Source: Heterodontus francisci
Taxonomy: Eukaryota
Direction of reading: 5' to 3'
Length of the DNA: 64,000 bases
Assembly: GCF_036365525.1 (NCBI RefSeq)
Contig: NC_090409.1
Coordinates: 39,256,437-39,320,436, forward strand
Position 1 is the first letter of the stretch. Each line of letters opens with the position of its first letter. The notes under the pieces were generated by a model that was not told the origin of the DNA, ran no database searches, and saw only the letters and a program-made list of their open reading frames with translations. A program made the position numbers and the translations under genes. Below, piece by piece: positions 16 through 64,000 of this stretch.

Positions 16-348
16 GTTACCCGTCTGTCCCAGTTTCTGGGTTCCTTGGGGAGCAGGTTGTGCTGCCCTGTATCTACAAAGGGAATGTCCCAGTCTCTGA
101 ATTACAGGTAATTTGGTGGATATTCAATCGTGGAATTTTACACAAATTTATCGATGGGAACGATGATTTAACACAACAAGACCCATGGTTCAGAAACAGA
201 ACAAACCTGTTCAAAGATCAACTGGAACAAGACAACTGGTCAATTATGATCTCTGACCTCAGGCAGTCAGACCAGAATGAGTATCAGTGTGAGATTCAAC
301 AGAGGGAGACTCCAGTCTTTCATCAAGATATTCATCTCTTTGTAACAA
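16..348 (+). CDS. Copy A IgV exon (V-set, B7/BTN type)
   Basis: ttttccag|G acceptor, A|gtgag donor, 333 nt, phase 1-1. Contains [27 protein letters not shown] and DQNEYQC: the canonical V-set Cys/Trp/DxxxYxC pattern plus the B7/BTN-like RTxLF..L..xN.S motif. Confidence 0.92.
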
Positions 349-8058: not shown

Positions 8059-8071
8059 CGCCATCTACTGG
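8059..8071 (-). promoter_or_regulatory. CTCF core motif CCAGTAGATGGCG
   Basis: Matches the CTCF core consensus CC[AG][CG][CT]AG[AG][TG]GGC[AG] and abuts the 43-bp satellite. Confidence 0.5.
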
Positions 8072-11000
8072 CTGAACCCCTTTAATACAGGAACCAGACT
8101 CTGGGTTGATCTGACCGAATCCCTTTAATACCGGAACCAGACTCTGGGTTAATCTGACCGAATCCCATGAATACAGGAACCAGACTCTGGGTTAATCTGA
8201 CCGAATCCCTTTAATACCGGAACCAGACTCTGGGTTAATCTGACCGAATCCCTTTAATACCGGAACCAGACTCTGGGTTAATCTGACCGAATCCCATTAA
8301 TACAGGAACCAGACTCTGGGTTAATCTGACCGAATCCCTTTAATACCGGAACCAGACTCTGGGTTAATCTGACCGAATCCCTTTAATACCGGAACCAGAC
8401 TCTGGGTTAATCTGACCGAATCCCATTAATACAGGAACCAGACTCTGGGTTGATCTGACCGAATCCCATTAATACAGGAACCAGACTCTGGGTTAATCTG
8501 ACCGAATCCCTTTAATACAGGAACCAGACTCTGGGTTAATCTGACCGAATCCCATTAATACAGGAACCAGACTCTGGGTTAATCTGACCGAATCCCATTA
8601 ATACAGGAACCAGACTCTGGGTTAATCTGACCGAATCCCATTAATACAGGAACCAGACTCTGGGTTAATCTGACCGAATCCCTTTAATACAGGAACCAGA
8701 CTCTGGGTTAATCTGACCGAATCCCATTAATACAGGAACCAGACTCTGGGTTAATCTGACCGAATCCCATTAATACAGGAACCAGACTCTGGGTTGATCT
8801 GACCGAATCCCATTAATACAGGAACCAGACTCTGGGTTAATCTGACCGAATCCCATTAATACAGGAACCAGACTCTGGGTTAATCTGACCGAATCCCTTT
8901 AATACCGGAACCAGACTCTGGGTTAATCTGACCGAATCCCTTTAATACCGGAACCAGACTCTGGGTTAATCTGACCGAATCCCTTTAATACCGGAACCAG
9001 ACTCTGGGTTAATCTGACCGAATCCCTTTAATACAGGAACCAGACTCTGGGTTGATCTGACCGAATCCCATTAATACAGGAACCAGACTCTGGGTTAATC
9101 TGACCGAATCCCATGAATACAGGAACCAGACTCTGGGTTAATCTGACCGAATCCCTTTAATACCGGAACCAGACTCTGGGTTAATCTGACCGAATCCCTT
9201 TAATACCGGAACCAGACTCTGGGTTAATCTGACCGAATCCCATTAATACAGGAACCAGACTCTGGGTTAATCTGACCGAATCCCTTTAATACCGGAACCA
9301 GACTCTGGGTTAATCTGACCGAATCCCTTTAATACCGGAACCAGACTCTGGGTTAATCTGACCGAATCCCATTAATACAGGAACCAGACTCTGGGTTAAT
9401 CTGACCGAATCCCATTAATACAGGAACCAGACTCTGGGTTAATCTGACCGAATCCCTTTAATACCGGAACCAGACTCTGGGTTAATCTGACCGAATCCCA
9501 TTAATACAGGAACCAGACTCTGGGTTAATCTGACCGAATCCCTTTAATACCGGAACCAGACTCTGGGTTAATCTGACCGAATCCCATTAATACAGGAACC
9601 AGACTCTGGGTTAATCTGACCGAATCCCATTAATACAGGAACCAGACTCTGGGTTAATCTGACCGAATCCCTTTAATACAGGAACCAGACTCTGGGTTAA
9701 TCTGACCGAATCCCATTAATACAGGAACCAGACTCTGGGTTGATCTGACTGAACCCCTTCAATACAGGAACCGGACTCTGGGTCGATCCGACTGAACCCC
9801 TTTAATACAGGAACCGGAATCTGGGTCGATCCGACTGAACCCCTTTAATACAGGAACCAGACTCTGGGTTAATCTGACCGAATCCCTTTAATACCGGAAC
9901 CAGACTCTGGGTTAATCTGACCGAATCCCATTAATACAGGAACCAGACTCTGGGTTGATCTGACTGAACCCCTTTAATACAGGAACCGGACTCTGGGTCG
10001 ATCCGACTGAACCCCTTTAATACAGGAACCGGAATCTGGGTCGATCCGGTTGAATCCCTTTAATACAGGAACCGGACTCTGGGTTGATCTGACCGAATCC
10101 CTTTAATACAGGAACCGGACTCTGGGTCGATCCGGTTGAATCCCTTTAATACAGGAACCAGACTCTGGGTCGATCCGGTTGAATCCCTTTAATACAGGAA
10201 CCGGACTCTGGGTCAATCCGACTGAACCCCTTTAATACAGGAACCGGACTCTGGGTCGATCCGACTGAACCCCTTTAATACAGGAACCGGACTCTGGGTC
10301 GATCCGACTAAACCCCTTTAATACGGGAAAAGGACACTGGGTCGATCCGACTGAACCCCTTTAATACGGGAACCGGACTCTGGGTCGATCCGACTGAACC
10401 CCTTTAATACGGGAACCGGACTCTGGGTCGATCTGACTGAACCCCTTTAATACAGGAACCAGACTCTGGGTCGTTCCGACTGAACCCCTTTAATACAGAA
10501 ACCGGTCTCTGGGTCGATCCGACTGAACCCCTTTAATACAGGAACCGGACTCTGGGTCGATCCGACTGAACCCCTTTAATACAGGAACCGGACTCTGGGT
10601 CGATCCAACTGAACCCCTTTAATACAGGAACCGGACTCTGGGTCGATCAGACTGAACCCCTTTAATACAGGAACCGGACTCTGGGTCGATCCGACTGAAC
10701 CCCTTTAATACGGGAACCGGACTCTGGGTCGATCCGACTGAACCCCTTTAATACAGGAACCGGACTCTGGGTCGATCCGACTGAACCCCTTTAATACAGG
10801 AACCGGACTCTGGGTCGATCCGACTGAACCCCTTTAATACAGGAACCGGACAACGGGTCGATCGGACTGAACCCCTTTAATACGGGAACCGGACTCTGCG
10901 TCGATCCGACTGGACCCCTTTAATACAGGAACCGGACTCTGGGTCGATCCGACTGAACCCCTTTAATACGGGAACCGGACTCTGGTTCGATCCGACTGAA

Positions 11001-11347
11001 CCCCTTCAATACAGGAACCGGACTCTGGGTCGATCCGACTGAACCCCTTTAATACGGGAACCAGACTCTGGGTCGATCCGACTGAACCCCTTTAATACAG
11101 GAACCGGACTCTGGGTCGATCCGGCTGAACCCCTTTAATACGGGAACCGGACTCTGGGTCGATCCGGCTGAACCCCTTTAATACAGGAACCGGACTCTGA
11201 GTCGATCCGACTGAACCCCTTTAATACAGGAACCGGACTCTGGGTCGATCCGACTGAACCCCTTTAATACAGGAACCGGACTCTGGGTCGATCCGACTGA
11301 ACCCCTTTAATACAGGAACCGGACTCTGGGTCGATCCGGCTGAACCG
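8072..11347. repeat. 43-bp tandem satellite, about 76 units, two sequence subdomains
   Basis: Unit TAATACAGGAACCAGACTCTGGGTTAATCTGACCGAATCCCTT up to about 9740, then variant ...CCGGACTCTGGGTCGATCCGACTGAACCCCTT. Confidence 0.97.
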
Positions 11348-11864
11348 CTGTATTTCTGCGGGAGAATTATCATCCCTTCATTATTCTTGGTATGAACACC
11401 ATATCCCAGCCCCTCCAATGACCCTGTGGCTAAAGGACCATCTGGTGCCCTAAGGGAAAAGATCCCTCAGCCAGAGCAGCAGCTAATATTGATCTCAGTG
11501 CTCTGAGTGAGAGAGGGGAATGAGTGGCTGGTGTTCCTGTCCTGATCCCTGTCTGGAAACTCCTGCTGGACATCAGGATTAGGCTGAGATGCAATGTTAA
11601 ATAAGCTGCTGAATCTAAAGGAGTTGTTTAACAAGGCTCTGCTCCCAGCATCGAGCCTTCCTACACAGTGAATGTAGCAACAGAGAAAGGGCCACAACAC
11701 AGCAGGCCAAATGTTCCAACCCTCACCTAGGTGAGTCCTTCCTGGTTTATTTATCAATTTTTAGTATTTAACCAATACACAAAACAGATTATCTGGTCAC
11801 TTATCTCTCTGCTACTTGTGGGAACTTGCTGTGTGTAAATTGGTGAGAAAGACACTGCATAAAT

Positions 11865-20700: not shown

Positions 20701-23700
20701 ATGTCTGGGTCACAGCCAGTGGGCCGTTCAGTTTTATTCTTGTTTTTCTTTCTAGTAGTTTGATACAAACTGATTGAAGTGGCCGAGCAGGTCAGAGGGC
20801 AGTTAAAAGGCAACCAGGTTAATGTGGGACAGGAGTCACATATAGACCAGACCGGGTAAGGACGGCAGGTTTCCTTCCCTAGAGGGACATCAGTGAACCA
20901 GTTGGGTTTTACAACAATCCAACAGCTTCATGGTCACTTTTATTGGGACCAACTTTATATTTCCAGATTTATTTTAAACTGAATTTCAATTCTGAAAGTG
21001 CCATGGTGGGATTTGAACTCACGTTCTCTGGATTATTAGTCCAGGCCTCTGGATTACTAGTCTAGTAACATAACCACTGCACTACCGTACCCATAAAATC
21101 AGAGAGTAAATGCAGAATACCTGAAACAGAAACCTCTCACCTGTGACAGAGAGATGAACATCTTGATGAAAGACTGGAGTCTCCCTCTGTTGAATCTCAC
21201 ATCGATACTCATTCTGGTCTGACTGCCTGAGGTCAGAGATCATAATTGACCAGTTGCCTTGTTCCAGTTGATCTTTGAACAGGTTTGTTCTGTTTCTGAA
21301 CCGTGGGTCTTGTACTGTTAAATCATCGTTCCCATCGATAAATTTGTGTAAAACTCCATTCCTGAATATCCACCAAATTACCTGCAACTCAGAGACTGGG
21401 ACATTCCCTTTGTAGATACAGGGCAGCACAACCTGCTCCCCAAGGAACCCAGAAACTGGGACAGGCGAGTAACCTGGAAAAGATTGGAAGAATTTATCCA
21501 CAGATATAACCTCCCTGCTGGTACATTCCATCCCAAACTTCACATGGTTACACTGCGATGCTTGATTTACAAGAAGCACTGATCAGTAACTCACTGCTTT
21601 CATTTCTGTGGGAAGGTTAAAGGTCAGGCATTAAGGGCCTTCAACTAAAACCAGCTTGTGCTGGATATTTGTATCCACAGAGCAGCTGGACAGCACTTTG
21701 AATTGTGTGTTTCCCATTGTACACATGCTGGGAGAACACATCAGGATATTGGTCACCCTGCCCACCTCCCCCCTTTGGGAGAACAATGACAGACTGGGGG
21801 TGCACAATGTGAGGTGGAGCTCAGGAGCAGAAAACTGACCCTGAAATGTAAAGACAGGAACAGATGGGGGAGGGGGTACCCGAGGATGTGGAAAGGGCTT
21901 TGGACAGGTTGGGGGGACAATGACGGACGAGTACACTGTGTAGGGGGTGAGGCAGCACCTGATGGTCTGAAAGGGGCCGAGGCAATGTGGATCCTCACCT
22001 CCCTCCACCACGAACACAAGAAATGGGAGCAGGAGTCGGCCATTCAGCCCCTCAAGTCTGCCCTGCAGTTCATTAAGATTATGGCGGATCTGTCCCAGGC
22101 TTCAACTCCTCTTTCGGGCCTGCTCCGCATCACCCTCAGCTCCAAGATTTCAAAAATCTCCTTATATATCTCTTGAAATAGTGACCCAGCCTCCACAACT
22201 CTGAGGTAGAGAATTCCAGACATTCATCACCCTGGGAGAGAAGAAATCCCTTCCCATCTCAGTTTTAAATGTGTGACCCCTTATTCTGTAACTATGTCCC
22301 CTCGTTCGAGATTCCCCCACCAGCAGGAACATATTCTCAACATCTACCCTGTCAAGCCCCCTTAGAATCTTATATGTTTCTATAAGATCACCTCTCATTC
22401 ATCTAAACTTCCATGAATAAAGGCCTAACCTGTTTAGCCGTTCTTGATAAAACTACCCCGTCATTAAAGGAATCAGCCTCGTAAATCTTTTCTGAACTGC
22501 CCCCAATGCTAGTTATATCCTTCCTTAAATACAGGGACCAAAACTATTAACAGTACTCCAGGTGCGGCCTCACCAACACCCTGTACATTTGTAACAAGAC
22601 TTCCCTATTTTTAAACTCTATCCCCCAAGCAATAAAGACCAAAATTCCATCTGCCTTCCTAATTATTTGCTGCACCTACATCCTAACCTTTTGTGTTTCA
22701 TGTACAAGAACACCCAGATCCCTCTGTACTGCAGTATTTTGTAGTCTTTCTCCATCTAAATAATAATCTGCCTTTTTATTCTTCCTGCCAAAGTGGATGA
22801 CCTTTCACTTTCCCACATTGAACTCCATCTGCCAAGTTTTGCCCACTCACTTAACCTATCTATATCCCTTTGCAGATTCTGTGTCCTCATCACAACATGC
22901 CTTTCCACCTATTTTTGCATCGTCAGCAAATTTGGACACACTACACTCTGTCCCTTCCTCCAAGTCATTGATATAGATAGTAAATAGTTGAGGCCCTCGG
23001 ACCGATCCTTGTGGAACCCCACTAGTTACAACTTTCCAATCTGAAAAAGACTCATCAACCCTAACTCTGTGCCTTCTGTGTGTTAGCCAATCCTCAATCC
23101 ATGCCAACACATTACCCCAATACCCTGAGCTTGTATTTTGTGCAATAACCTTTTATGTGGCACCTTATTGAACACATTCTGAAAATCCAAATACACAACA
23201 TCTACAGGTTCCTCTTTATCCACTCTGCTTGTTATATCCTCAAAGAACTCGAACAAATTTGTCAAACATGATTTCCCTTTCATAAAACCATGTTGACTCT
23301 GTTTGATTGCATTATATTTTTTCTAAATGTCCTGCTGTTTCTTCCTTCATAATGGATTCTAGTATTTTCCCAATGACAGATGTTAAGCTAACTGGTCTAT
23401 AATTTCCTGCTTTCTGTCTCCCTCCTTTCTTGAATAGGGGGGGTCACATTAGCGGTTTTCCAATCTGCTGGTACCCGACTGGAATCCAGTGAGTTTTGGT
23501 ATATTATGATCAATGCCTCCACTATCTCTGCAGCCACTTCCTTTAAAACCCTTGGATGCAGGCCATCAGGTCCTGGCGACTTGTCTGCCTTTTGTCCCAA
23601 GAGTTTGTCCAGCAGCTTTATCGGCTTAAAAGTCTGCCACTGCTCATCAACTGACTTTACTTTTCGTCTATTTTCCCAGCCCGAACCTGTCAGACCTTGC

Positions 23701-35015: not shown

Positions 35016-35139
35016 TTAATTTAATTAAATTCAAACAAGGAAGAATGAAAGAGTTCTCCATGTTCCACATAATTTAGAAAGGGAGATGACTGAAATATTT
35101 GTCCTGATTTTCACCTGGGTGGGTGGGAAAGTGCGGTGG

Positions 35140-38100
35140 AGCCCGGTAACAGGTGAGGAACCCGGTAACAGGTGAGGAACCCGGTAAAAGGTGAGGAACC
35201 CGGTAACAGGTGAGGAACCCGGTAAAAGGTGAGGAACCCGGTAACAGGTGAGGAACTTGGTAACAGGTGAGGAACCCAGTAAAAGGTGAGGAACTTGGTA
35301 ACAGGTGAGGAACACGGTATCAGGTGAGGAACCCGGTAACAGGTGAGGAACACGGTAACAGGTTAGGAACCCGGTAAAAGGTGAGGAACCCGGTAACAGG
35401 TGAGGAACCCAGTAAAAGGTGAGGAACCCGGTAACAGGTGAGGAACACGGTATCAGGTGAGGAACCCGGTAACAGGTGAGGAACCCGGTAACAGGTGAGG
35501 AACCTGGTAACAGGTGTGAGGAACCCAGTAACAGGTGAGGAACCTGGTAACAGGTGAGGAACCCGGTAAAAGGTGAGGAGCCCGGTAACAGGTGAGGAAC
35601 CCGGTAAAAGGTGAGGAACCTGGTAACAGGTGAGGAACCCAGTAAAAGGTGAGGAGCCCGGTAACAGGTGAGGAACCCGGTAACAGGTGAGGAACCCCGG
35701 TAACAGGTGAGGAACCCAGTAACAGGTGAGGAGCCCGGTAACAGGTGAGGAACCCAGTAACAGGTGAGGAACCCGGTAAAAGGTGAGGAACCTGGTAACA
35801 GGTGAGGAACCCGGTAACAGGTGAGGAACCTGGTAACAGGTGAGGAACCCAGTAAAAGGTGAGGAACCCGGTAACAGGTGAGGAACCCGGTAACAGGTGA
35901 GGAACCCAGTAAAAGGTGAGGAGCCCGGTAACAGGTGAGGAGCCTGGTAACAGGTGAGGAACCCGGTAAAAGGTGAGGAGCCCGGTAACAGGTGAGGAAC
36001 CCGGTAACAGGTGAGGAACCCCGGTAACAGGTGAGGAACCCAGTAACAGGTGAGGAGCCCGGTATCAGGTGAGGAACCCAGTAACAGGTGAGGAACCCGG
36101 TAAAAGGTGAGGAACCTGGTAACAGGTGAGGAACCCGGTAAAAGTTGAGGAACCCGGTAACAGGTGAGGAACCTGGTAACAGGTGAGGAACCCGGTAAAA
36201 GGTGAGGAACCCAGTAACAGGTGAGGAACCTGGTAACAGGTGAGGAACCCGGTAAAAGGTGAGGAGCCCGGTAACAGGTGAGGAACCCCGGTAACAGGTG
36301 AGGAACCCAGTAAAACGTGAGGAACCCGGTAACAGGTGAGGAACCCAGTAAAAGGTGAGGAACCCGGTAACAGGTGAGGAACACGGTATCAGGTGAGGAA
36401 CCCGGTAACAGGTGAGGAACCCGGTAAAAGGTGAGGAACCCGGTAAAAGGTGTGAGGAACCCGGTAACAGGTGAGGAACCCAGTAAAAGGTGAGGAACCC
36501 GGTAACAGGTGAGGAACACGGTATCAGGTGAGGAACCCGGTAACAGGTGAGGAACACGGTATCAGGTGAGGAACCCGGTAACAGGTGAGGAACCCGGTAA
36601 CAGGTGAGGAACACGGTATCAGGTGAGGAACACGGTATCAGGTGAGGAACACGGTAACAGGTGAGGAACCCGGTAAAAGGTGAGGAACCCGGTAAAAGGT
36701 GTGAGGAACCCGGTAACAGGTGAGGAACACGGTATCAGGTGAGGAACCCGGTAACAGGTGAGGAACACGGTATCAGGTGAGGAACCCGGTAACAGGTGAG
36801 GAACCCGGTAACAGGTGAGGAACACGGTATCAGGTGAGGAACACGGTAACAGGTGAGGAACACGGTATCAGGTGAGGAACACGGTAACAGGTGAGGAACA
36901 CGGTATCAGGTGAGGAACACGGTATCAGGTGAGGAACCCGGTAACAGGTGAGGAACCCGGTAAAAGGTGTGAGGAACCCAGTAACAGGTGAGGAACCCGG
37001 TAAAAGGTGAGGAGCCCGGTAAAAGGTGTGAGGAACCCAGTAACAGGTGAGGAACCCGGTAAAAGGTGAGGAACCTGGTAACAGGTGAGGAACCCGGTAA
37101 AAGGTGAGGAACCTGGTAACAGGTGAGGAACCCAGTAACAGGTGAGGAACCCGGTAAAAGGTGAGGAACCTGGTAACAGGTGAGGAACCCGGTAACAGGT
37201 GAGGAACCCGGTAAAAGGTGAGGAGCCCGGTAACAGGTGAGGAACCCAGTAACAGGTGAGGAACCCGGTAACAGGTGAGGAGCCTGGTAACAGGTGAGGA
37301 ACCCGGTAACAGGTGTGAGGAACCCGGTAACAGGTGAGGAATCCGGTAACAGGTGAGGAACCCGGTAACAGGTGAGGAGCCTGGTAACAGGTGAGGAACC
37401 CGGTAACAGGTGTGAGGAACCCGGTAACAGGTGAGGAACCCGGTAACAGGTGAGGAGCCTGGTAACAGGTGAGGAACCCGGTAACAGGTGTGAGGAACCC
37501 GGTAACAGGTGAGGAATCCGGTAACAGGTGAGGAACCCGGTAACAGGTGTGAGGAGCTTGGTAACAGGTGAGGAACGTGGTAACAGGTGAGGTACCCGGT
37601 AACAGGTGAGGAACCCGGTAACAGGTGAGGAACCCGGTAACAGGTGTGAGGAACCCGGTAACAGGTGAGGAACCCGGTAACAGGTGAGGAACCCGGTAAC
37701 AGGTGTGAGGAACCCGGTAACAGGTGTGAGGAACCCGGTAACAGGTGAGGAACCCGGTAACAGGTGTGAGGAACCCGGTAACAGGTGAGGAACACAGAGG
37801 TATTAGCAATTTTGGAAAGTGTGAAAATAGATAAGTCCCCTGGGCCAGATGGGATTTATCCTAGCATTCTCTGGGAAGCCAGGGAGGAGATTGCAGAGCC
37901 ATTGTTGTTGATCTTTATGTCGTCATTGTCGACAGGAGTAGTGCCGGAAGACTGGAGGATAGCAAATGTTGACCCCTTGTTCAAGAAGGGGAGTAGAGAC
38001 AGCCCTGGTAATTATAGACCTGTGAGCCTTACTTCGGTTGTGGGTAAAATGTTGGAAAAGGTGAAAAGAGATAGGATTTATAATCATCTTGAAAAGAATA

Positions 38101-40576
38101 AGTTCATTTGCGATAGTCAGCACGGTTTTGTGAAAGGTAGGTCGTGCCTCACAAACCTTATTGAGTTTTTCGAGAAGGTGACCAAACAGGTGGATGAGGG
38201 TAAAGCCGTGGATGTGGTGTATATGGATTTCAGTAAGGCGTTTGATAAGGTTCCCCACGGTAGGCTATTGCAGAAAATACGGAAGTATGGGGTTGAAGGT
38301 GATTTAGAGCTTTGGATCAGAAATTGCCGAGCTGAAAGAAGACAGAGGGTGGTGGTTGATGGCAAATGTTCATCCTGGAGTTTAGTTACTAGTGGTGTAC
38401 TGCAAGGTTCTGTTTTGGGGCCATTGCTGTTTGTCATTTTTATAAATGACCTGGATGAGGGTGTAGAAGGGTGGGTTAGTAAATTTGCGGATGACACGAA
38501 GGTCGGTGGAGTTGTGGATAGTGTCGAAGGGTGTTGTAGGGTACAGAGGGACATAGATAGGCTGCAGAGCTGGGCTGAGAGATGGCAAATGGAGTTTAAT
38601 GCGGAGAAGTGTGAGGTGATTCACTTTGGAAGGAGTAACAGCAATGCAGAGTACTGGGCTAATGGGAAGATTCTTGGTAGTGTAGATGAGTAGAGAGATC
38701 TTGGAGTCCAGCTACATAAATCCCTGAAAGTTGCTACCCAGGTTAATAGGGCTGTTAAGAAGGCATATGGTGTGTTAGCTTTTATTAGTAGGGGGATCGA
38801 GTTTCGGAGCCACGAGGTCATGATGCAGCTGTACAAAACTCTGGTGAGGCCGCACCTTGAGTATTGCATGCAGTTCTGGTCACCGCATTATAGGAAGGAT
38901 GTGGAAGCTTTGGAAAGGGTGCAGAGGAGATTTACTAGGATGTTGCCTGGTATGGAGGGAAGGTCTTACGAGGAAAGGCTGAGGGACTTGGGGTTGTTTT
39001 CGTTAGAGAGAAGGAGGAGGAGAGGTGACTTAATAGAGACATACAAGATAATCAGAGGGTTAGATAGGGTGGATAGTGAGAGTCTTTTTCCTCGGATGAT
39101 GATGGCAAACACGAGGGGACATAGCTATAAGTTGAGGGGTGAAAGATATAGGACAGATGTCAGAGGTAGTTTCTTTACGCAGAGAGTAGTAGGGGCGTGG
39201 AATGCCCTGCCTGCAACAGTAGTAGACTCGCCAACTTTAAGGGCATTTAAGTGGTCATTGGATAGACATATGGATGAAAATGGAATAGTGTAGGTCAGAT
39301 GGTTTCACAGGTCGGCGCAACATCGAGGGCCGAAGGGCCTGTACTGCACTGTAATGTTCTAATTCTAAAAAACAGGTGTGAGGAACCCGGTAACAGGTGA
39401 GGAACCCGGTAAAAGGTGTGAGGAACCCGGTAACAGGTGAGGAACCCATTAACAGGTGAGGAACCCGGTAACAGGTGTGAGGAACCCGGTGACAGGTGAG
39501 GAACCCAGTAACAGGTGTGTGGAACCCGGTAACAGGTGTGTGGAACCCGGTAACAGGTGTGAGGAACCCGGTGACAGGTGAGGAACCCGGTAACAGGTGA
39601 GGAACCCATTAACAGATGAGGAACCCGTTAACAGGTGAGGAACCCGGTAACAGGTGAGGAACCCGGTAATAGGTGTGAGGAACCCGGTAACAGGTGTGAG
39701 GAACCCGGTGACAGGTGAGGAACCCAGTAACAGGTGTGAGGAACCCATTAACAGATGAGGAACCCGTTAACAGGTGAGGAACCCGGTAACAGGTGAGGAA
39801 CCCGGTAACAGGTGTGAGGAACCCGGTAACAGGTGTGAGGAACTGGTCACAGGTGAGGAACCCAGTAACAGGTGTGAGGAACCCGTTAACAGATGAGGAA
39901 CCCGTTAACAGGTGTGGAACCCGGTAACAGGTGTGAGGAACTGGTCACAGGTGAGGAACCCAGTAACAGGTGTGAGGAACCCGTTAACAGATGAGGAACC
40001 CGTTAACAGGTGAGGAACCCGGTAACAGGTGAGGAACCCGTTAACAGGTGAGGAACCCGGTAACAGGTGAGGAACCCGGTAACAGGTGAGGAACCCGGTA
40101 ACAGGTGTTAGGAACCCGGTAACAGGTGTGAGGAACCCGGTGACAGGTGAGGAACCCAGTAACAGGTGTGAGGAACCCATTAACAGGTGAGGAACCCGGT
40201 AACAGGTGAGGAACCCATTAACAGATGAGGAACCCGTTAACAGGTGAGGAACCCGGTAACAGGTGAGGAACCCGGTAACAGGTGTGAGGAACCCGGTAAC
40301 AGGTGTGAGGAACCCGGTAACAGGTGTGAGGAACCCGGTAACAGGTGTTAGGAACCCGGTAACAGGTGTGAGGAACCCGGTGACAGGTGAGGAACCCAGT
40401 AACAGGTGTGAGGAACCCATTAACAGGTGAGGAACCCGGTAACAGGTGAGGAACCCATTAACAGATGAGGAACCCGTTAACAGGTGAGGAACCCGGTAAC
40501 AGGTGAGGAACCCGGTAACAGGTGTGAGGAACCCGGTAACAGGTGTGAGGAACTGGTCACAGGTGAGGAACCCAGC
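35140..40576. repeat. 19-bp satellite GGTAACAGGTGAGGAACCC (with 20/21-bp variants), roughly 200 units, split by a CR1
   Basis: Period 19 read directly (cccggt at 35161, 35180, 35199); arrays at 35140-37794 and 39372-40576. Confidence 0.97.
37795..39371 (+). mobile_element. 5'-truncated CR1 LINE inserted in the 19-bp satellite
   Basis: RT ORFs 37785-38693 and 38772-39293 separated by one in-frame TAG; tail tgttctaattctaa. Confidence 0.95.
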
Positions 40577-41089
40577 AAGGTTCTTTCACCATTGAATTCA
40601 ATCTATGCAGAGTTCTACCTGGCAAATGACCATCTTGACTACCTGACCTATTGTTATTCTTTTGCCCCACCCCCGCTTTATTTGTTTAAAACCTATTACA
40701 TTTCTAATCTTTTCCAGTTCTGATGAAAGGTCACTGACCTGAAAGGTTAACTCTATTTCTCTCTTTACAGCTGCTGCCAGACCTGCTGAGTATTTCCAGC
40801 ATTTTTTATTTGTTATTGAAGTAGCAGCTGCATTTTCCTGATAACCTGCTCCCTGTGCACAAGGCTCCGCCCCGGGTAAAATCTGGTCGCTGGCGTAAAA
40901 CGCGCGGTATCCTGTCTGTCGCCCATTGTACTCTCCGCCCGATTTTCCGCTCCATTGACCTCAACAGAACTGAATAGCAGGTGGAGCACATGTCATTGGT
41001 CACTGCAATAGCGCAGACTTTACCCTCGGGACTGAGATGGTTTTGTACTCATGTCTGTCAAAAGTCTGGAAAATTAGCCAAGTGTTGTA

Positions 41090-53752: not shown

Positions 53753-53927
53753 TTAGTGCTGGACAGCCCCGTTCCCCAGAAGGTTTTGTTCTCCAGCTGC
53801 TCCATTCTGATGCTCAGGTGCTGTTGTGAAACATGGGACCTTGTGACCTGAACAAGTCACCCCTGTCAAAGGGACGACATTAGATGCTTCATTTTGATTG
53901 ATGCTGTGATGATTTTGAACACAATTC
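53753..53927 (-). CDS. Copy C cytoplasmic tail exon
   Basis: (W)[57 protein letters not shown]. Confidence 0.72.
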
Positions 53928-56900
53928 CTGGGAGAGAAAAACAGCAGAGTTCAGGTTACATTAAAAGAATCCAACACTTTGTACAAGTGTGTAAAGGAGC
54001 TGTTCAGGAGCACAGACCGATTAAATTACACTCAACATCCTGGGCACCAATGGCAGCTGGAAAATGGGTCACAGGAGCTGCACGGTGATGGAGCACAGAG
54101 TGTAGAGGAGAGGAGGCTTATAGAGGAGGCAATGGGCAAGAGCTGGACACTCCATGGGACCTGTGCTGACCGAGGCACCAGACCAATAGAAAAATGACAA
54201 CTCACCTCAACATTGGAGATTAAGAAGAATTGATGAAGATCTCGGTTAACACTGAACTGAAGATGATGGGGATCAGATCAGACAGGAGGAGGCTGGTAAT
54301 GTCCGTACTCTCCAGTCTGATCCTGTATTATTGAAAGGAGCCACAGATGGACAGGATATTCCCGGATGTGATCAAACCCGACCCAGCAGTGACCAAACAG
54401 GCTGACGGAGACAGAAATATTGGGATGGGGGAAAAGAGTCAGAGGACAGAGTTAGAGAATCTGCAATAGTTTCCCCCCCACAACTGGCAGATAGGTAAGA
54501 GATGGGCAGGGAGATGTGGATGTTGAGGGAGGCAGAGAAATGCAACATATTTTATTGTTAGTGATCAAAACCACTGATGGTCAGGTCAAGGGATGAGAGT
54601 GGACACAGGGTATATCACAGAAGCGGAGGTAGGTGGTATTGGAGTGATGGGAGAGAATATGGAGTCAGAAGCTCAGCTCAGGGTCTGATAGGACTCCGAG
54701 GTTGTGAACAGTCTGGTTCAGCCTCAGACAGTGGCCAGGGAGGGGGATGGAGTCAGTGACTGGGGAACAGAGCAAGGATCAGAGGCTGATGAAAAGTCAG
54801 AGGAGAGGGGACAAGGGGATTTTAGGTGTAGGCTGGTGAGTTGTTTGCTGCAGAGATTAGACGAGTGTCTATTAACTGTGTGATAGAGGGAGCCGCACAT
54901 TCCTGCTCTTCACCTTCAGTTCAGCAGCTAGAGGATGACAACAAGCTGGAAGTGACTGGATAATGCAGAATTGAAACATCCCACACAGCACAAAGTGTAT
55001 CAGTGCACACAACATTTCCACAACACCAAATATAATAAAACAAAACTAGAATTAACAATGGGAACTGCAGAACATTCCAGAACTCACCATCTTTGTCGCT
55101 TTAGGAAAACCAGAATTATGCAAAGAAGAACAAGAATTATGCAAATAAGAACAAGAATTGCGATGACCAATCCAACTACTGCTCCAGTAGAGGGTCCAGG
55201 AGCTAAAGACAGAATGAAGCCGTTAACAGACTGGGACACACTAACAAAACTAACAGCAGAGACTGTCAGCACCTAGTGTTTCAGAACCATCCCCAGTACA
55301 AACACATCCCTGGTCAATTCTAGTCCTGGAGGAATGCGGGAGACTAAATATTAATAATCTCACACACACACACACTGCCCCACAGTCTGATAGATACATG
55401 CTTTCCAATGGAGATAACTGGACACTGACCAGCAGCAGCTTCCCTTCAATTAAACCCAACAGCTCGCTGAAATAGAGCAGGAATTTTAAACTCGTGAAAA
55501 TCACAGGATTGGATGGATGCTGGTTTACATCCAGCTCCTGGAGTTCCCGGAAAGATGGGAAAAGATTTGGAAGGTGACAACACATTAAAGGATTTGGGAG
55601 GGGAAAGGGAGGTAGGAGATGGGACAGTAGTTTCCGAAGGTTAAGGGTTATTTTTTTGAGGATAGCGATGATCTCGCCAGATTTACAGGAGAGGCAGATA
55701 ACACCTGGAGACAAGCATTTACAATATCGACTAACATTACAACCAAGAGGGAAAGGTGGGTGTTCGGTAGTTTAGCAGGAACAGGATCAAGGGAACAGGA
55801 GGTGGGTCTCATGGACATGATGAGCTCAAACAGGGAATGAGTGGAAATAGGAGAGAAACCAGAGAAAGATGGGAGTTCAGGGTTAGGGCAGGATTATAGG
55901 AAGTTTGGCCAGGTGTGCTAGTGGAAGGGAGGGACACGACAGAGGCAGCTTTTCGAATGGTCTCGAACTTAGTGACAGAACAGTCCATGAGCTCCTCGCA
56001 CGTATTGTTGGACTTATTACCCATTCAGTGTGAGCATATGTAAAATCTAAAAACACATGCAGTAGTTTAGAAACAGATTTACCTGGTACAGGTGTGTTCA
56101 ATACAGGTGTGTTCAGTACAGGTGTACGAGTTCGCTCTAAAGAAAACATCATGTGTTTAGCATTGTGTGTGACGGTAGACAGGCAATTGCTCACACCTGA
56201 AGATCTAATACATAGTTTACAACAAAAATGCATTTCTTTAATGTAAAAAATCCCAGCAAGGAAAGTGTTCCAACCGTGGCTAACAAAAGAAATCAAAGAT
56301 TGTATTAGAGCAAAGGAAGAGGCGTATAAAGTTGCCAAAAACATGTTAATCCTGAGGATTGGGAACATTTCAAAATTCTGCAAAGGAGGACCGGGAAAAA
56401 GATTAAGAAAGGGAAATAGAATAGGAGAGTAAATTAGCGAGAAACATAAAAACAGACTGTAAAAGCTTCTCCAGATCTGTAAAACAGAAAAGATTAGTAA
56501 AGACAAATGTGGGTCCATTACAAACAGACTTAGGAGAATTTATAATTGGGAACAAGGAAATGGCAGAGAAAATAAAACAAATACTTTGTGTCTGTCTTCA
56601 CAGAGGAAAATACTAAAAAGCTCCCAGAAATAATGGAGAATCAAGGGACTAGTGTCAACAAGGAACTGCAAGATACCAATATTAATAAACAAGTACAAGA
56701 GAAATTAGTGGGACTGAAAGTAGATAAATCCTCTGGACCTGATGATCTACATCCCAGCATGTTGAAAGAGGTGGCTGTAGAGATAGTTGATGCATTAGTG
56801 GTCATCTTTCAAAATTCTGTAGACTCTGGAATGGTTCCCGCAGACTGGAAGGTGGTAAATGTAACCCAACTGTTTAAGAAAGGAGGGAGAGAGAAAACAG

Positions 56901-59900: not shown

Positions 59901-62900
59901 GCCACTGTGCGTTGGTGGTGGAGGGAGTGAATGTTTGTAGATGGGGTGCCAATCAAGCGGGCTGCTTTGTCCTGGATGGTGTCGAGCTTCTTGAGTGTTG
60001 TTGGAGCTGCACCCATCCAGGCAAGTGGAGAGTATTCCATCACACTCCTGACTTGTGCCTTGTAGATGGTGGACAGGCTTTGGGGAGTCAGGAGGTGAGT
60101 TACTCGCCTCAGGATTCCAAGCCTCTGACCTGCTCTTGTAGCCATGGTATTTATATGGCTACTCCAGTTCAGTTTCTGGTCAATGGTAGCCCCTAGGATG
60201 TTGATAGTGGGGGATTCAGCGATGGTAATGCCGTTGAATGTCAAGGGGAGATGGTTAGATTCTCTCTTGTTGGAGATGGTGATTGCCTGGCACTTGTGTG
60301 GTGCGAATGTTACTTGCCACTTAACAGCCCAAGCCTGGATATTGTCCAGGTCTTGCTGCATTTCTACACGGACTGCTTCAGTATCTGAGGAGTCACGAAT
60401 GGTGCTGAACATTGTGCAATCACCAGCGAACATCCCCACTTCTGAACTTATGATTGAAAGAAGGTCATTGATGAAGCAGCTGAAGATGGTTGGGCCTCGG
60501 ACACTACCCTGAGGAATTAGAATTAGAACATTACAGCGCAGTGCAGGCCCTTCGGCCCTCGATGTTGCGCCGATCTGTGAAACCATCTGACCTACACTAT
60601 TCCATTTTCATCCATATGTCTATCCAATGACCACTTAAATGCCCTTAAAGTTGGCGAGTCTACTACTGTTGCAGGCAGGGCGTTCCACCCCCCTACTACT
60701 CTCTGAGTAAAGAAACTAACTCTGACATCTGTCCTATATCTATCACCCCTTAACTTAAAGCTATGTCCCCTCGTGTTTGCCATCACCATCCGAGGAAAAA
60801 GACTCTCACTATCCAACCTATCTAACCCTCTGATTATCTTATATGTCTCTATTAAGTCACCTCTCCTCCTCCTTCTCTCCAATGAAAACAACCTCAAGTC
60901 CCTCAGCCTTCCCTCCATACCAGGCAACATCCTAGTAAATCTCCTCTGCACCCTTTCCATAGCTTCCACATCCTTCCTATAATGCAGTGACCAGAACTGC
61001 ACGCAATACTCCAGGTGCGGTCTCACCAGAGTTTTGTACACCTGCAGCATGACCTCGTGGCTCCGAAACTCGATCCCCCTACTAATAAAAGCTAACACAC
61101 CATATGCCTTCTTAACAGCCCTATTAACCTGGGTAGCAACCTTCAGGGAATTATGCACCTGGACACCAAGATCTCTCTGTTCATCTACGCTACCAAGAAT
61201 CTTCCCATTAGCCCAGTACTCTGCATTGCTGTTACTCCTTCCAAAGTGAATCACCTCACACTTTTCCGCATTAAACTCCATTTGCCATCTCTCAGCCCAG
61301 CTCTGCAGCCTATCTATGTCCCTCTGTACCCTACAACATCCTTTGGCACTATCCACAACTCCACCGACCTTAGTGTCATCCGCAAATTTACTAACCCACC
61401 CTTCTACACCCTCTTCCAGGTCATTTATAAAAATGACAAACAGCAGTGGCCCCAAAACAGATCCTTGCGGTAGACCACTCGTAACTAAACTCCAGGATGA
61501 ACATTTGCCATCAACCACCACCCTCTGTCTTCTTTCAGCTAGCCAATTTCTGATCCAAAGCTCTAAATCACCTTCAACCCCATACTTCCGTATTTTCTGC
61601 AATAGCCTACCATGGGGAACCTTATCAAACGCCTTACTGAAATCCATATACACCACATCCACGTCTTTACCCTCATCCACCTGTTTGGTCACCTTCTCGA
61701 AAAACTCAATAAGGTTTGTGAGGCACGACCTACCCGTCACAAAACCGTGCTGACTATCGCTAATGAGGAACTCCTGCAGTGATGTCCTGGAGCTCAGATG
61801 ATTGACCTCCAACAACCACAACCATCTTCCTTTGTGCTAGGTATGACTTCAGCCAGCGGAGGGTTTTCCCCGATTCCCATCGACCTCAGTTTTGCGAGGG
61901 CTCCTTGATGCCATATTCGGTCAAATGCTGCCTTGATGTCAACGGCAGTCACTCTCACCTCACCTCTGGATTACTAGTCCAGGCCTCTGGATTACTAGTC
62001 TAGTAACATAACCACTGCACTACCGTACCAATAAAATCAGAGTAAATGCAGAATACCTGAAACAGAAACTTCTCACCTGTTACAGAGAGATCAACATCTT
62101 GATGAAAGACAACATCTGCCCTCTTGTAAAACTGGCACACATACTTGTACTGGTCTGACTGCCTGAGGTCAGAGATCATAACTGACCAGTTGCCTTGTTC
62201 CAGTTGATCTTTGAACAGGTTTGTTCTGTTTCTGAACCGTGGGTCTTGTAGTGCCAACTCATCATTTCCATTGGCAAATCTGTGTAAAACTCCACGCTTG
62301 AATATCCACCAAATTACCTGGAAATCAGAGACCGGGACATTCTCTTTGTAGACACAGGGCAGCACAACATGCTCCCCAAGGAACCCAGAAACTGGGACAG
62401 ACGAGTAACCTGGAAAAGATTGAAAGTATTTATCCACAGATATAACCTCCCTGCTGGTACATTCCATCCCAAGCTTCACATGGTTACACTGCGATGCTTG
62501 ATTTACAAGAAGCACTGATCAGTAACTCACTGCTTTCATTTCTGTGGGAAGGTTAAAGGTCAGGCATTAAGGGCCTTCAACTAAAACCAGCTTGTGCTGG
62601 ATATTTGTATCCACAGAGCAGCTGGACAGCACTTTGAATCGTGTGTTTCCCATTGTACACATGCTGGGAGAACACATCAGGATATTGGTCACCCTGCCCA
62701 CCTCCCCCCTTTGGGAGAACAATGACAGACCAGTGAACTGGCAGTGAGATCCCCAAACAAACACTGGATTTGGGACTGAGGTTTACAGAATCACCCAGGC
62801 TTCAACACTGAACCAACTAATCCGAGCTCTGCTGAACGTGAGAGCAGTCACAGCGCTTACCTGAAACAGCAGCAACAGCATTTAGCAGCAGCAGGAGGAG

Positions 62901-63293
62901 GAGGAGTTTCTGTAAGTTGGGTCCCTGCAACAAGAAAACACAGTTACCCCCCTTTACCACAGTTTCTTGCTGCTCATGTCCATTTCTGAACCGGACTGTG
63001 TCACTGTGTCCCCCACCCCTGGGTGTAGATTAACAGCTAGGTGTTTATTTTCAGTTTAAACACAGTTTCTCTCGCTCCATCTCCTGTCTGACATTTCTCC
63101 TTTTATAAATGAGACCCTGCCCCAGGGTCAGGAAGACAAAGCCCCGAAATAGAACAAACTCTTCCCCTTTTTAGAGGGAGACAAACAATAAAGAGGCGAA
63201 TCCTCGGGGAGAGAAAGGAAAGTTTCCCCCACATCCCCCTCCCTCTCCCCGGGTGTGAGACACTGACAATACCTGCAGCGCTTTTCCATCCAT
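53753..63293 (-). CDS. Copy C: complete single-IgV B7/BTN-like membrane protein, about 253 aa, full-length tail
   Basis: Exons 63293-63273, 62924-62861, 62409-62077, 56136-56083, 55202-55088 and 53927-53753 (TAA). All GT-AG, phases 0,1,1,1,2; 762 nt in total. AATAAA on - at 53356-53366. Confidence 0.87.
55088..55202 (-). CDS. Copy C transmembrane exon
   Basis: [38 protein letters not shown]. Confidence 0.85.
56083..56136 (-). CDS. Copy C stalk exon (ERTRTPVLNTPVLNTPVP)
   Basis: 54 nt; ttttctttag acceptor, gtaaat donor. Confidence 0.8.
56173..58281 (+). mobile_element. Decayed CR1 LINE present only in copy C, about 36 nt from the stalk-exon acceptor
   Basis: DKSSGPDDLHP, NYRPVSL and RGDLIQTYKI motifs with CR1 tail; empty site in B at about 20287. 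Confidence 0.9.
59531..61963 (-). mobile_element. Family-2 LINE with 10-bp TSD, carrying a nested CR1
   Basis: TSD CTCTGGATTA at 59521-59530 and 61964-61973; T tract at 59531; RT ORF 59825-60510. Confidence 0.9.
60517..61763 (-). mobile_element. Nested CR1 with 7-bp TSD
   Basis: TSD TGAGGAA at 60510-60516 and 61764-61770; open RT frame, very similar to 38110-39371. Confidence 0.93.
62077..62409 (-). CDS. Copy C IgV exon
   Basis: 333 nt, phase 1-1; [22 protein letters not shown] and DQYKYVC. Confidence 0.92.
62861..62924 (-). CDS. Copy C signal-peptide exon ([21 protein letters not shown])
   Basis: ttgcag acceptor, G|gtaagc donor. Confidence 0.85.
63273..63293 (-). CDS. Copy C first coding exon (MDGKALQ)
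   Basis: ATG GAT GGA AAA GCG CTG CAG|gtattg. Confidence 0.65.
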
Positions 63294-63407: not shown

Positions 63408-64000
63408 GGTCCAGACAGAGGGGAATCAGTCCCGGTCCCCGTGTCTGTGTCTCTGTCCAGACAGAGGGGGGATCAGTCCCAGTCCCTGTGTCTGGGTTCA
63501 GACAGAGGGGGATCAGTCCTGGTCCCTGTGTCTGGGTCCAGACAGAGGGGAATCAGTCCTAGCCCCTGTGTCTGGGTCCAGACAGAGGGGGATCAGTCCT
63601 GGTCCCAGTGTCTGGGTTCAGACAGAGGGGGATCAGTCCGAGTCCCTGTGTCTGGGTCCAGACAGAGGGGGATCAGTCCCAGTCCCCGTGTCTGGGTCCA
63701 GACAGAGGGGGATCAGTCCCAGTCCCCGTGTCTGTGTCAGGGTCCAGACAGAGGGGTATCAGTCCCGGTCCCTGTGTCTGGGTCCAGACAGAGGATGATC
63801 AGTCTGGGTCCCTGTGTCTGGGTCCAGACAGAGAGGGATCAGTCCCGGTCCCTGTATCTGGGTCCAGACAGAGGGGGATCAGTCCCGGTCCCTGTATCTG
63901 GGTCCAGACAGAGGGGGATCAGTCCTAGTCCCTGTGTCTGGGTCCAGACAGAGGGGGATCAGTCCTGGTCCCTGTGTCTGGGTCCAGACATAGGGGGATC
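63408..64000. repeat. 40-bp minisatellite immediately upstream of copy C
   Basis: Unit GTCCAGACAGAGGGGGATCAGTCCCGGTCCCTGTGTCTGG (gacagagggg at 63501, 63541, 63581, 63621, 63661); runs off the window. A remnant of about 2 units lies at 26107-26180, upstream of copy B. Confidence 0.95.

Follow-up and report, generated by a model that had tools for sequence, protein, structure and literature searches.

Genes and V exons at the locus

The window, i.e. the whole stretch of 64,000 nucleotides of Heterodontus francisci DNA that was analysed, contains three V exons, referred to as copies A, B and C (Table 1). The predicted gene product consists of a leader, one IgV domain, a stalk, a transmembrane helix and a cytoplasmic tail without ITIM or ITAM. 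Exon joints were derived from contigs of four runs, three of which were guessed to be RNA, and any paralog may be the source of these contigs. The joints lead from the V exon to the stalk and from there to the transmembrane exon, and the homologs contain either one V domain or two; no IgC domain was found. Stalk repeats differ in number among the paralogs, the length of the transmembrane segment varies by short in-frame repeats, and the tails of four genes (A, B, L004 and L008) are shortened.

Table 1. Features of copies A, B and C and of their surroundings, in window positions.
Feature	Position	Strand	Remarks
Copy A V exon	16..348	+	B-like cassette at 276-314
Copy B V exon	21141..21473	-	B-type cassette at 21175-21213
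Copy C cytoplasmic-tail coding exon	53753..53927	-	57 aa, no tyrosine; approximate joint in 1/4 runs
Copy C transmembrane exon	55088..55202	-	Helix without charged residue; joint to stalk exon in 4/4 runs
Pro/Thr-rich stalk exon	56083..56136	-	54 nt, variable short repeats; V-exon joint at this site in 3/4 runs
Reverse-transcriptase-like repeat	60517..61965	-	About 100 nt beyond the V exon; common to five C-type copies; presumably a LINE fragment
Copy C V exon	62077..62409	-	IgV, Pfam V-set; spliced joints in contigs of presumed RNA runs
C-type F-G cassette	62111..62149	-	V-domain codons 87-99 (F strand, F-G turn, beginning of G); in L001-L005
Synonymous peak, V-exon codons 47-57	62237..62269		pS 0.31, pN 0.09; adjoins the C' variable sites
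Second variable segment	62270..62302	-	C-C' loop and C' strand, codons 36-46; pS 0.17, pN 0.20 (17 unique exons)
Leader-V intron	62410..62727	-	4/318 nt differ between B and C; mean difference 0.0094 at -150..-6 (17 loci)
Copy C signal-peptide exon	62861..62924	-	Joined to the V exon in 4/4 runs
Long tandem repeat arrays	8068-11352, 35138-37793, 39371-40578, 63408-64000		Periods about 43, 19 and variable

A preliminary description of this DNA had assigned the V domain to the B7 type, and this assignment was borne out. The domain carries the marks of a V-set domain (two Cys, the C-strand Trp, and B7-family V domains as the closest ones), matches Pfam V-set with an E-value of 2e-11 and gives a model with a pLDDT of 94, for which Foldseek returned B7-H4 and PD-L1 as best matches (TM 0.88 for B7-H4; identity across the fold matches 21-30%). 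By sequence, the V domain matched CD276, B7-H4, MOG, PD-L1 and butyrophilins, and the ESM Atlas returned generic V-set clusters only. The V domains of B7-H4, PD-L1, B7-H3 and MOG are the best sequence or fold matches, but the shark genes have no IgC domain and are present in 19 copies. The canonical B7 ligand ectodomain of the CD80/PD-L1/B7-H3 type (IgV plus IgC) was rejected because IgC is missing. Orthology to CD276 was rejected as well, because another locus (L028) reaches 139 bits to CD276 versus 56 bits for the cluster V domain. With this better match 2.1 Mb off, the database labels 'CD276 homolog' and 'MOG-like' are no proof of orthology. L028 (G000:C39:41718809), which is likely the CD276 ortholog, and L027 (C39:38582495), another B7-type V exon, flank the cluster.

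An assignment to the butyrophilins was discarded because the tails comprise 19-57 aa encoded by a single exon in 19/19 genes, and neither IgC nor B30.2 is present. Paired immune receptors of the CD300, TREM or SIRP type were discarded because ITIM and a basic transmembrane residue are missing: in the 19 genes no Lys or Arg lies within the transmembrane helix, where one His (L004) and one Asp (L010) were found. Tyrosine is absent from 17 of the 19 tails, and the other two have one each, outside the ITIM pattern. The lack of ITIM, ITAM and a basic transmembrane residue suggests, from the architecture, that the products are putative ligands or decoys and not signalling receptors.

The cluster comprises 22 V exons with 72-100% identity, which lie within 0.47 Mb of contig C39 (out of 64 own-genome matches). 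None of the 22 exons contains a stop, and each of the three exon indels is in frame. A tail-bearing query gave 21 matches, 19 of which are tail exons in the cluster region; 19 tail exons and 22 V exons fit 19 genes, three of them with two V exons. Transmembrane and tail exons are present in all 19 genes. In the two-V genes (L012+L022, L013+L020 and L014+L021, at 39.21, 39.35 and 39.52 Mb of C39) the V exons are 2.3 kb apart, with the short F-G type first and then the long one, and two-V forms occur in other sharks too. Identical exons (L007 and L008; L012-L014) are possible assembly duplicates. Other full-length V matches in the genome, outside the 22 exons, are at best 26-38% identical. A second large set of V exons, with about 25 matches at 28-38% identity, was observed on G000:C29 (5.5-12.1 Mb) and C1207, and we take it to be butyrophilin-like. 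Named relatives of the family belong to 12 shark species, galeomorphs and one sawshark. The closest ones (93-97%) are labelled Heterodontus francisci and are perhaps models of the same genome, hence not independent. Ray or chimaera relatives were not found among 43, 76 and 59 matches of word-limited searches, which is a weak absence.

Divergence of the F-G segment and mosaic V exons

In copy C the F-G patch reads YKYVCQFYKRADV on the minus strand. Compared with the 13-residue counterpart in copy B, 19 of 39 nt and 10 of 13 residues are changed and Y, C and R are retained, exactly as had been described. The V reading frame of 330 nt holds 42 B/C differences in all, and when these were scattered at random, 19 fell within one 39-nt window in 0 of 100,000 placements. 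The edges of the patch are sharp, as codons 77-86 and 100-105 are the same in B and C. Sequencing error was ruled out as the source, because the same 13 residues are found in 5 of the 22 paralogous V exons. The near-identity of the flanking intron could be confirmed for the leader-V intron upstream (Table 1), and the C-C' and C'-C'' variants cited for copies A, B and C were correct. The neighbouring framework of 22 residues, described as nearly identical, does not differ between B and C; copy A departs from it at two residues (W57 and D72).

Five of the 19 patch differences between B and C are synonymous, a point absent from the preliminary description. This corresponds to a pS of 5/8.6 = 0.58 and a pN of 14/30.4 = 0.46, and the pN/pS of the patch is 0.79 for B/C and 0.93 for the 17 unique exons. 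Positive selection over the whole patch had been proposed, and with both ratios below 1 this proposal could not be upheld. The synonymous excess is significant, with 5 of about 9 synonymous sites changed (binomial p=8e-5) against a 6% background taken from homologous gene segments that are 87-97%, mostly 92-97%, identical.

For the divergence profile, the 22 exons were collapsed to 17 unique ones, and codons 97-104 were masked in the seven long forms. Among these 17 exons, pS and pN were 0.231 and 0.214 at codons 87-99, 0.166 and 0.200 at codons 36-46, 0.311 and 0.086 at codons 47-57, and 0.060 and 0.022 at codons 58-86. The upstream intron differs by 0.009 at -150..-6 (17 loci), and the intron between the V exon and the repeat insertion, with a difference of 0.039, is still homogenised. 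The segment thus displays a peak of divergence, i.e. a local rise of both pS and pN between homogenised flanks. As pS increases along with the variable loops, the variable segments are best read as old haplotype blocks and not as a recent selected burst.

Five F-G types are present in the cluster: L001-L005 carry the C-type, six exons the B-type, and L016-L022 a long form with four additional residues, while one type is confined to L010 and another to L012-L014. Parts of the C-type cassette recur in other types, YKR in the long forms and VVF-QDV in L010. An unseen paralog had been considered as donor of the patch; it is not needed, since four other genes of the cluster have the C-type patch. 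The exchange of segments between paralogs, which had also been considered, was corroborated. A PHI-type permutation test was significant (p=0.0002; 58 informative sites, 17 unique exons), and in AU tests of four exon segments 11 of 12 cross-segment trees were rejected (p<0.01), keeping in mind that a segment's own tree wins by construction. The KRGV C-C' loop was seen in combination with three F-G types, five C-C' loops accompany the B-type F-G, and the C-type cassettes are found on three different backbones. Copy C itself has a C-type V domain, yet its transmembrane and tail peptides equal those of the B-type L006.

Variation on the fold, codon models and other sharks

Side-chain directions were assigned by strand parity from the secondary structure of the model, without coordinates, with the core anchors of general Ig folds. 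The comparison of faces covered 71 unique domains, 18 from this genome and 53 from 11 other species; four unparsed domains and the proteins labelled with the closest species were excluded. Within the other shark species, variation at outward positions was 0.49 on the front and 0.14 on the back (p=5e-4), and in this genome 0.37 and 0.07 (p=0.02). The proposed focus of variation on outward positions of the GFCC' face was therefore observed, with the face defined by strand parity and not by coordinates. In this genome, no variation was seen at the inward F-strand residues Y89 and C91, nor at positions 30, 32 and 34 on the front of the C strand. N-glycan sequons are present at N60 in 63 of 71 domains and at N73 in 67 of 71. 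With a residue offset, the PD-L1 counterparts of V90 and R43 are Arg113 and Gln66, both interface residues according to PMC5341541.

Codon models were our own (F3x4, branch lengths from M0, rescaled). With one tree, a class with an omega of 3.0 at 30% of sites was obtained (p=9e-6 for M1a/M2a, 1e-6 for M8a/M8), and in the patch V90, Q92, Y94, K95, A97, D98 and V99 were flagged. With four segment trees, omega was 1.9 and significance marginal (p=0.06 for M1a/M2a, 0.018 for M8a/M8, 0.08 with multi-hit rates). The one-tree signal is inflated because of recombination. For the site models that had been named as a check on selection, a class with omega above 1 including V90, Y94, A97 and D98 thus stood, as these four remained flagged with segment trees, but its p-value weakened from about 1e-5 to 0.02-0.06. 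Four of the 17 flagged sites (V19, Y20, F29 and V76) lie off the front face, and these too remained flagged with segment trees. Multi-hit rates gained 3-5 log units over the plain one-tree fit; under segment trees this gain shrank to about 1 log unit and the double-hit rate to 0-0.004. Taken together, the models suggest positive selection at sites of the V domain, marginally so with segment trees. In a converting gene cluster, a naive site-model test exaggerates positive selection.

Framework and F-G trees were calculated from the first 57 domains. In the former, all frameworks of this genome fall into a single clade (100/96); in the latter, its short forms join those of catshark, although weakly (83/81). 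A single clade for the F-G forms of this genome was not rejected (AU p=0.092), so a trans-species F-G clade is not significant. Short and long F-G forms occur together both here and in Scyliorhinus canicula. Five pairs were picked by hand for comparison: sequences of one F-G type reach 78-81% identity when catshark is set against white or basking shark, i.e. across orders, versus 30-41% for different F-G types inside one species. Judged from these sequences, F-G types seem to have been retained across shark orders. The exact C-type cassette was found in no other species among 53 domains, so that the age of the patch is gauged by its synonymous changes alone.

Origin of the F-G versions and their possible role

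The patch of copy C is one of five F-G versions in mosaic V exons, and we regard it, with moderate confidence, as an old cassette of the binding face that is kept distinct by selection amid conversion. Gene conversion and unequal crossing-over would homogenise framework and introns and reshuffle the loops, while selection would act against conversion tracts that overwrite a cassette; the patch itself would be old. Every combination of F-G, C-C' and C'-C'' segments may have its own putative specificity, and the copies would bind different putative partners.

Other origins of the patch were considered. Recent positive selection could have built it by point mutation on the C lineage, in the style of a host-pathogen arms race, and both the one-tree M2a/M8 result (omega 3.0, 30% of sites, p 1e-5 to 1e-6) and a patch pN about 35 times the difference of the upstream intron would agree with this. 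However, synonymous divergence is equally high, recombination inflates the one-tree test (with segment trees, omega is 1.9), and five paralogs have one and the same C-type patch at the protein level. We consider this origin unlikely, and a recent selective burst as sole cause was rejected, as pS is at least as high as pN. We also doubt that the patch is a neutral island, in which relaxed exposed loops, once diverged, mechanically resist conversion with the aid of the downstream repeat, and the diversity is functionless. A pN/pS of about 1 in the variable segments, the marginal segment-tree tests and the insertion about 100 nt downstream, common to the five C-type copies, are consistent with such an island. 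Against it stand the conservation of equally exposed back-face positions (for which glycans and packing may account), the conservation of single F-G types between shark orders, the homogenised intron between exon and insertion (0.039), and 22 exons without stops.

Shark antibody genes are subject to a tandem-substitution mutator, and germline leakage of such an activity might make patches by local hypermutation. The B/C differences do fall in runs of adjacent bases, four of the five synonymous changes lie in codons with a residue change too, and multi-hit rates raise the one-tree fit by 3-5 log units. Nevertheless, hypermutation by tandem hits was rejected, because the multi-hit rates vanish under segment trees (double-hit rate 0-0.004, about 1 log unit), and F-G types appear to persist between species; we regard local hypermutation as barely credible. 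A single transfer of the patch from a distant gene that is not part of the cluster would explain the sharp edges, with codons 77-86 and 100-105 identical in B and C. It is very unlikely, however, given that the best full-length V matches beyond the 22 exons are only 26-38% identical, that the cassette has YKR as in the long forms and VVF-QDV as in L010, and that the cluster has five F-G types.

As far as the cited accounts go, the mechanism of an old cassette kept distinct amid conversion is already known, from chicken BG and from the divergence peak of opsins. Chicken BG genes, members of the B7/butyrophilin family, exchange cassettes between paralogs (PMC5043582). In the part of that literature used here, the BG genes resemble the shark cluster in several respects: both are tandem arrays that encode membrane proteins with a V domain, both change in copy number and contain hybrid genes, and in both short cassettes pass from one paralog to another. 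Of these traits, hybrid genes and exchanged cassettes were indeed found in the shark array. According to the same source, BG cassettes are CDR1/CDR2-equivalent loops, whereas the shark cassettes are C-C', C'-C'' and F-G, and BG proteins form Cys-linked dimers and have repeated cytoplasmic exons, whereas the shark genes have one tail exon. A BG-type Cys in the CDR1-equivalent loop was not found at residues 19-32 of 57 domains. Unlike chicken BG, the shark types appear to persist across shark orders. In human red/green opsin genes, exon 5 forms a peak of divergence under gene conversion, which was read as selection against conversion (PMC3924837). From what this account describes, opsin exon 5 resembles the shark patch as a short, divergent functional segment with little-diverged flanking introns; the opsins are one gene pair, whereas the shark cluster has many paralogs and several cassettes.

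The putative partner bound by the GFCC' face most likely varies itself, be it a family of lymphocyte receptors or an adhesin of some pathogen. To our knowledge, no ligand has been identified for shark gamma-delta T cells or for their CD28-like receptors, and a B7-like family that is expanded across sharks, has a diversified GFCC' face and lacks a signalling tail offers a concrete ligand candidate. Alternatively, the family may be a record of a long conflict with a shark pathogen. In BTNL3/BTN3A, which are gamma-delta TCR ligands, the CFG face of the IgV domain is the receptor-binding surface, as seen in BTNL3 (PMC6868513); compared with these proteins, as far as that source describes them, the shark genes lack IgC and B30.2. 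CD28-family receptors were reported in sharks, according to the excerpt considered (PMC11599192), and are candidate partners of the cluster proteins. It is tempting to speculate, although we hold it to be rather improbable, that the cluster is a germline-diversified repertoire of B7-like ligands in sharks, with old F-G, C-C' and C'-C'' cassettes combined by conversion and each resulting face matched to one family of shark gamma-delta TCR, NAR-TCR or CD28-like V domains. On this view, cartilaginous fish would have their own equivalent of the BTNL/Skint selecting ligands, one that is built from another gene lineage and located on the CD276 chromosome. A description of this shark family was not found in the literature listings and abstract openings searched. 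The five cassettes are a ready-made panel for binding tests.

Parts of the family were also observed in other contexts. In five proteins of other sharks (P0070, P0071, P0072, P0075 and P0076) the family's transmembrane segment and tail are combined with a Cys-containing ectodomain without Pfam match. A 42% match to this ectodomain lies at G000:C39:40936303-40936524, 1.3 Mb from the cluster, and points to a possible ectodomain swap. Lone fragments of tail and V exons of the family are present on other contigs (G000:C1:216009471 and C19:31119375).
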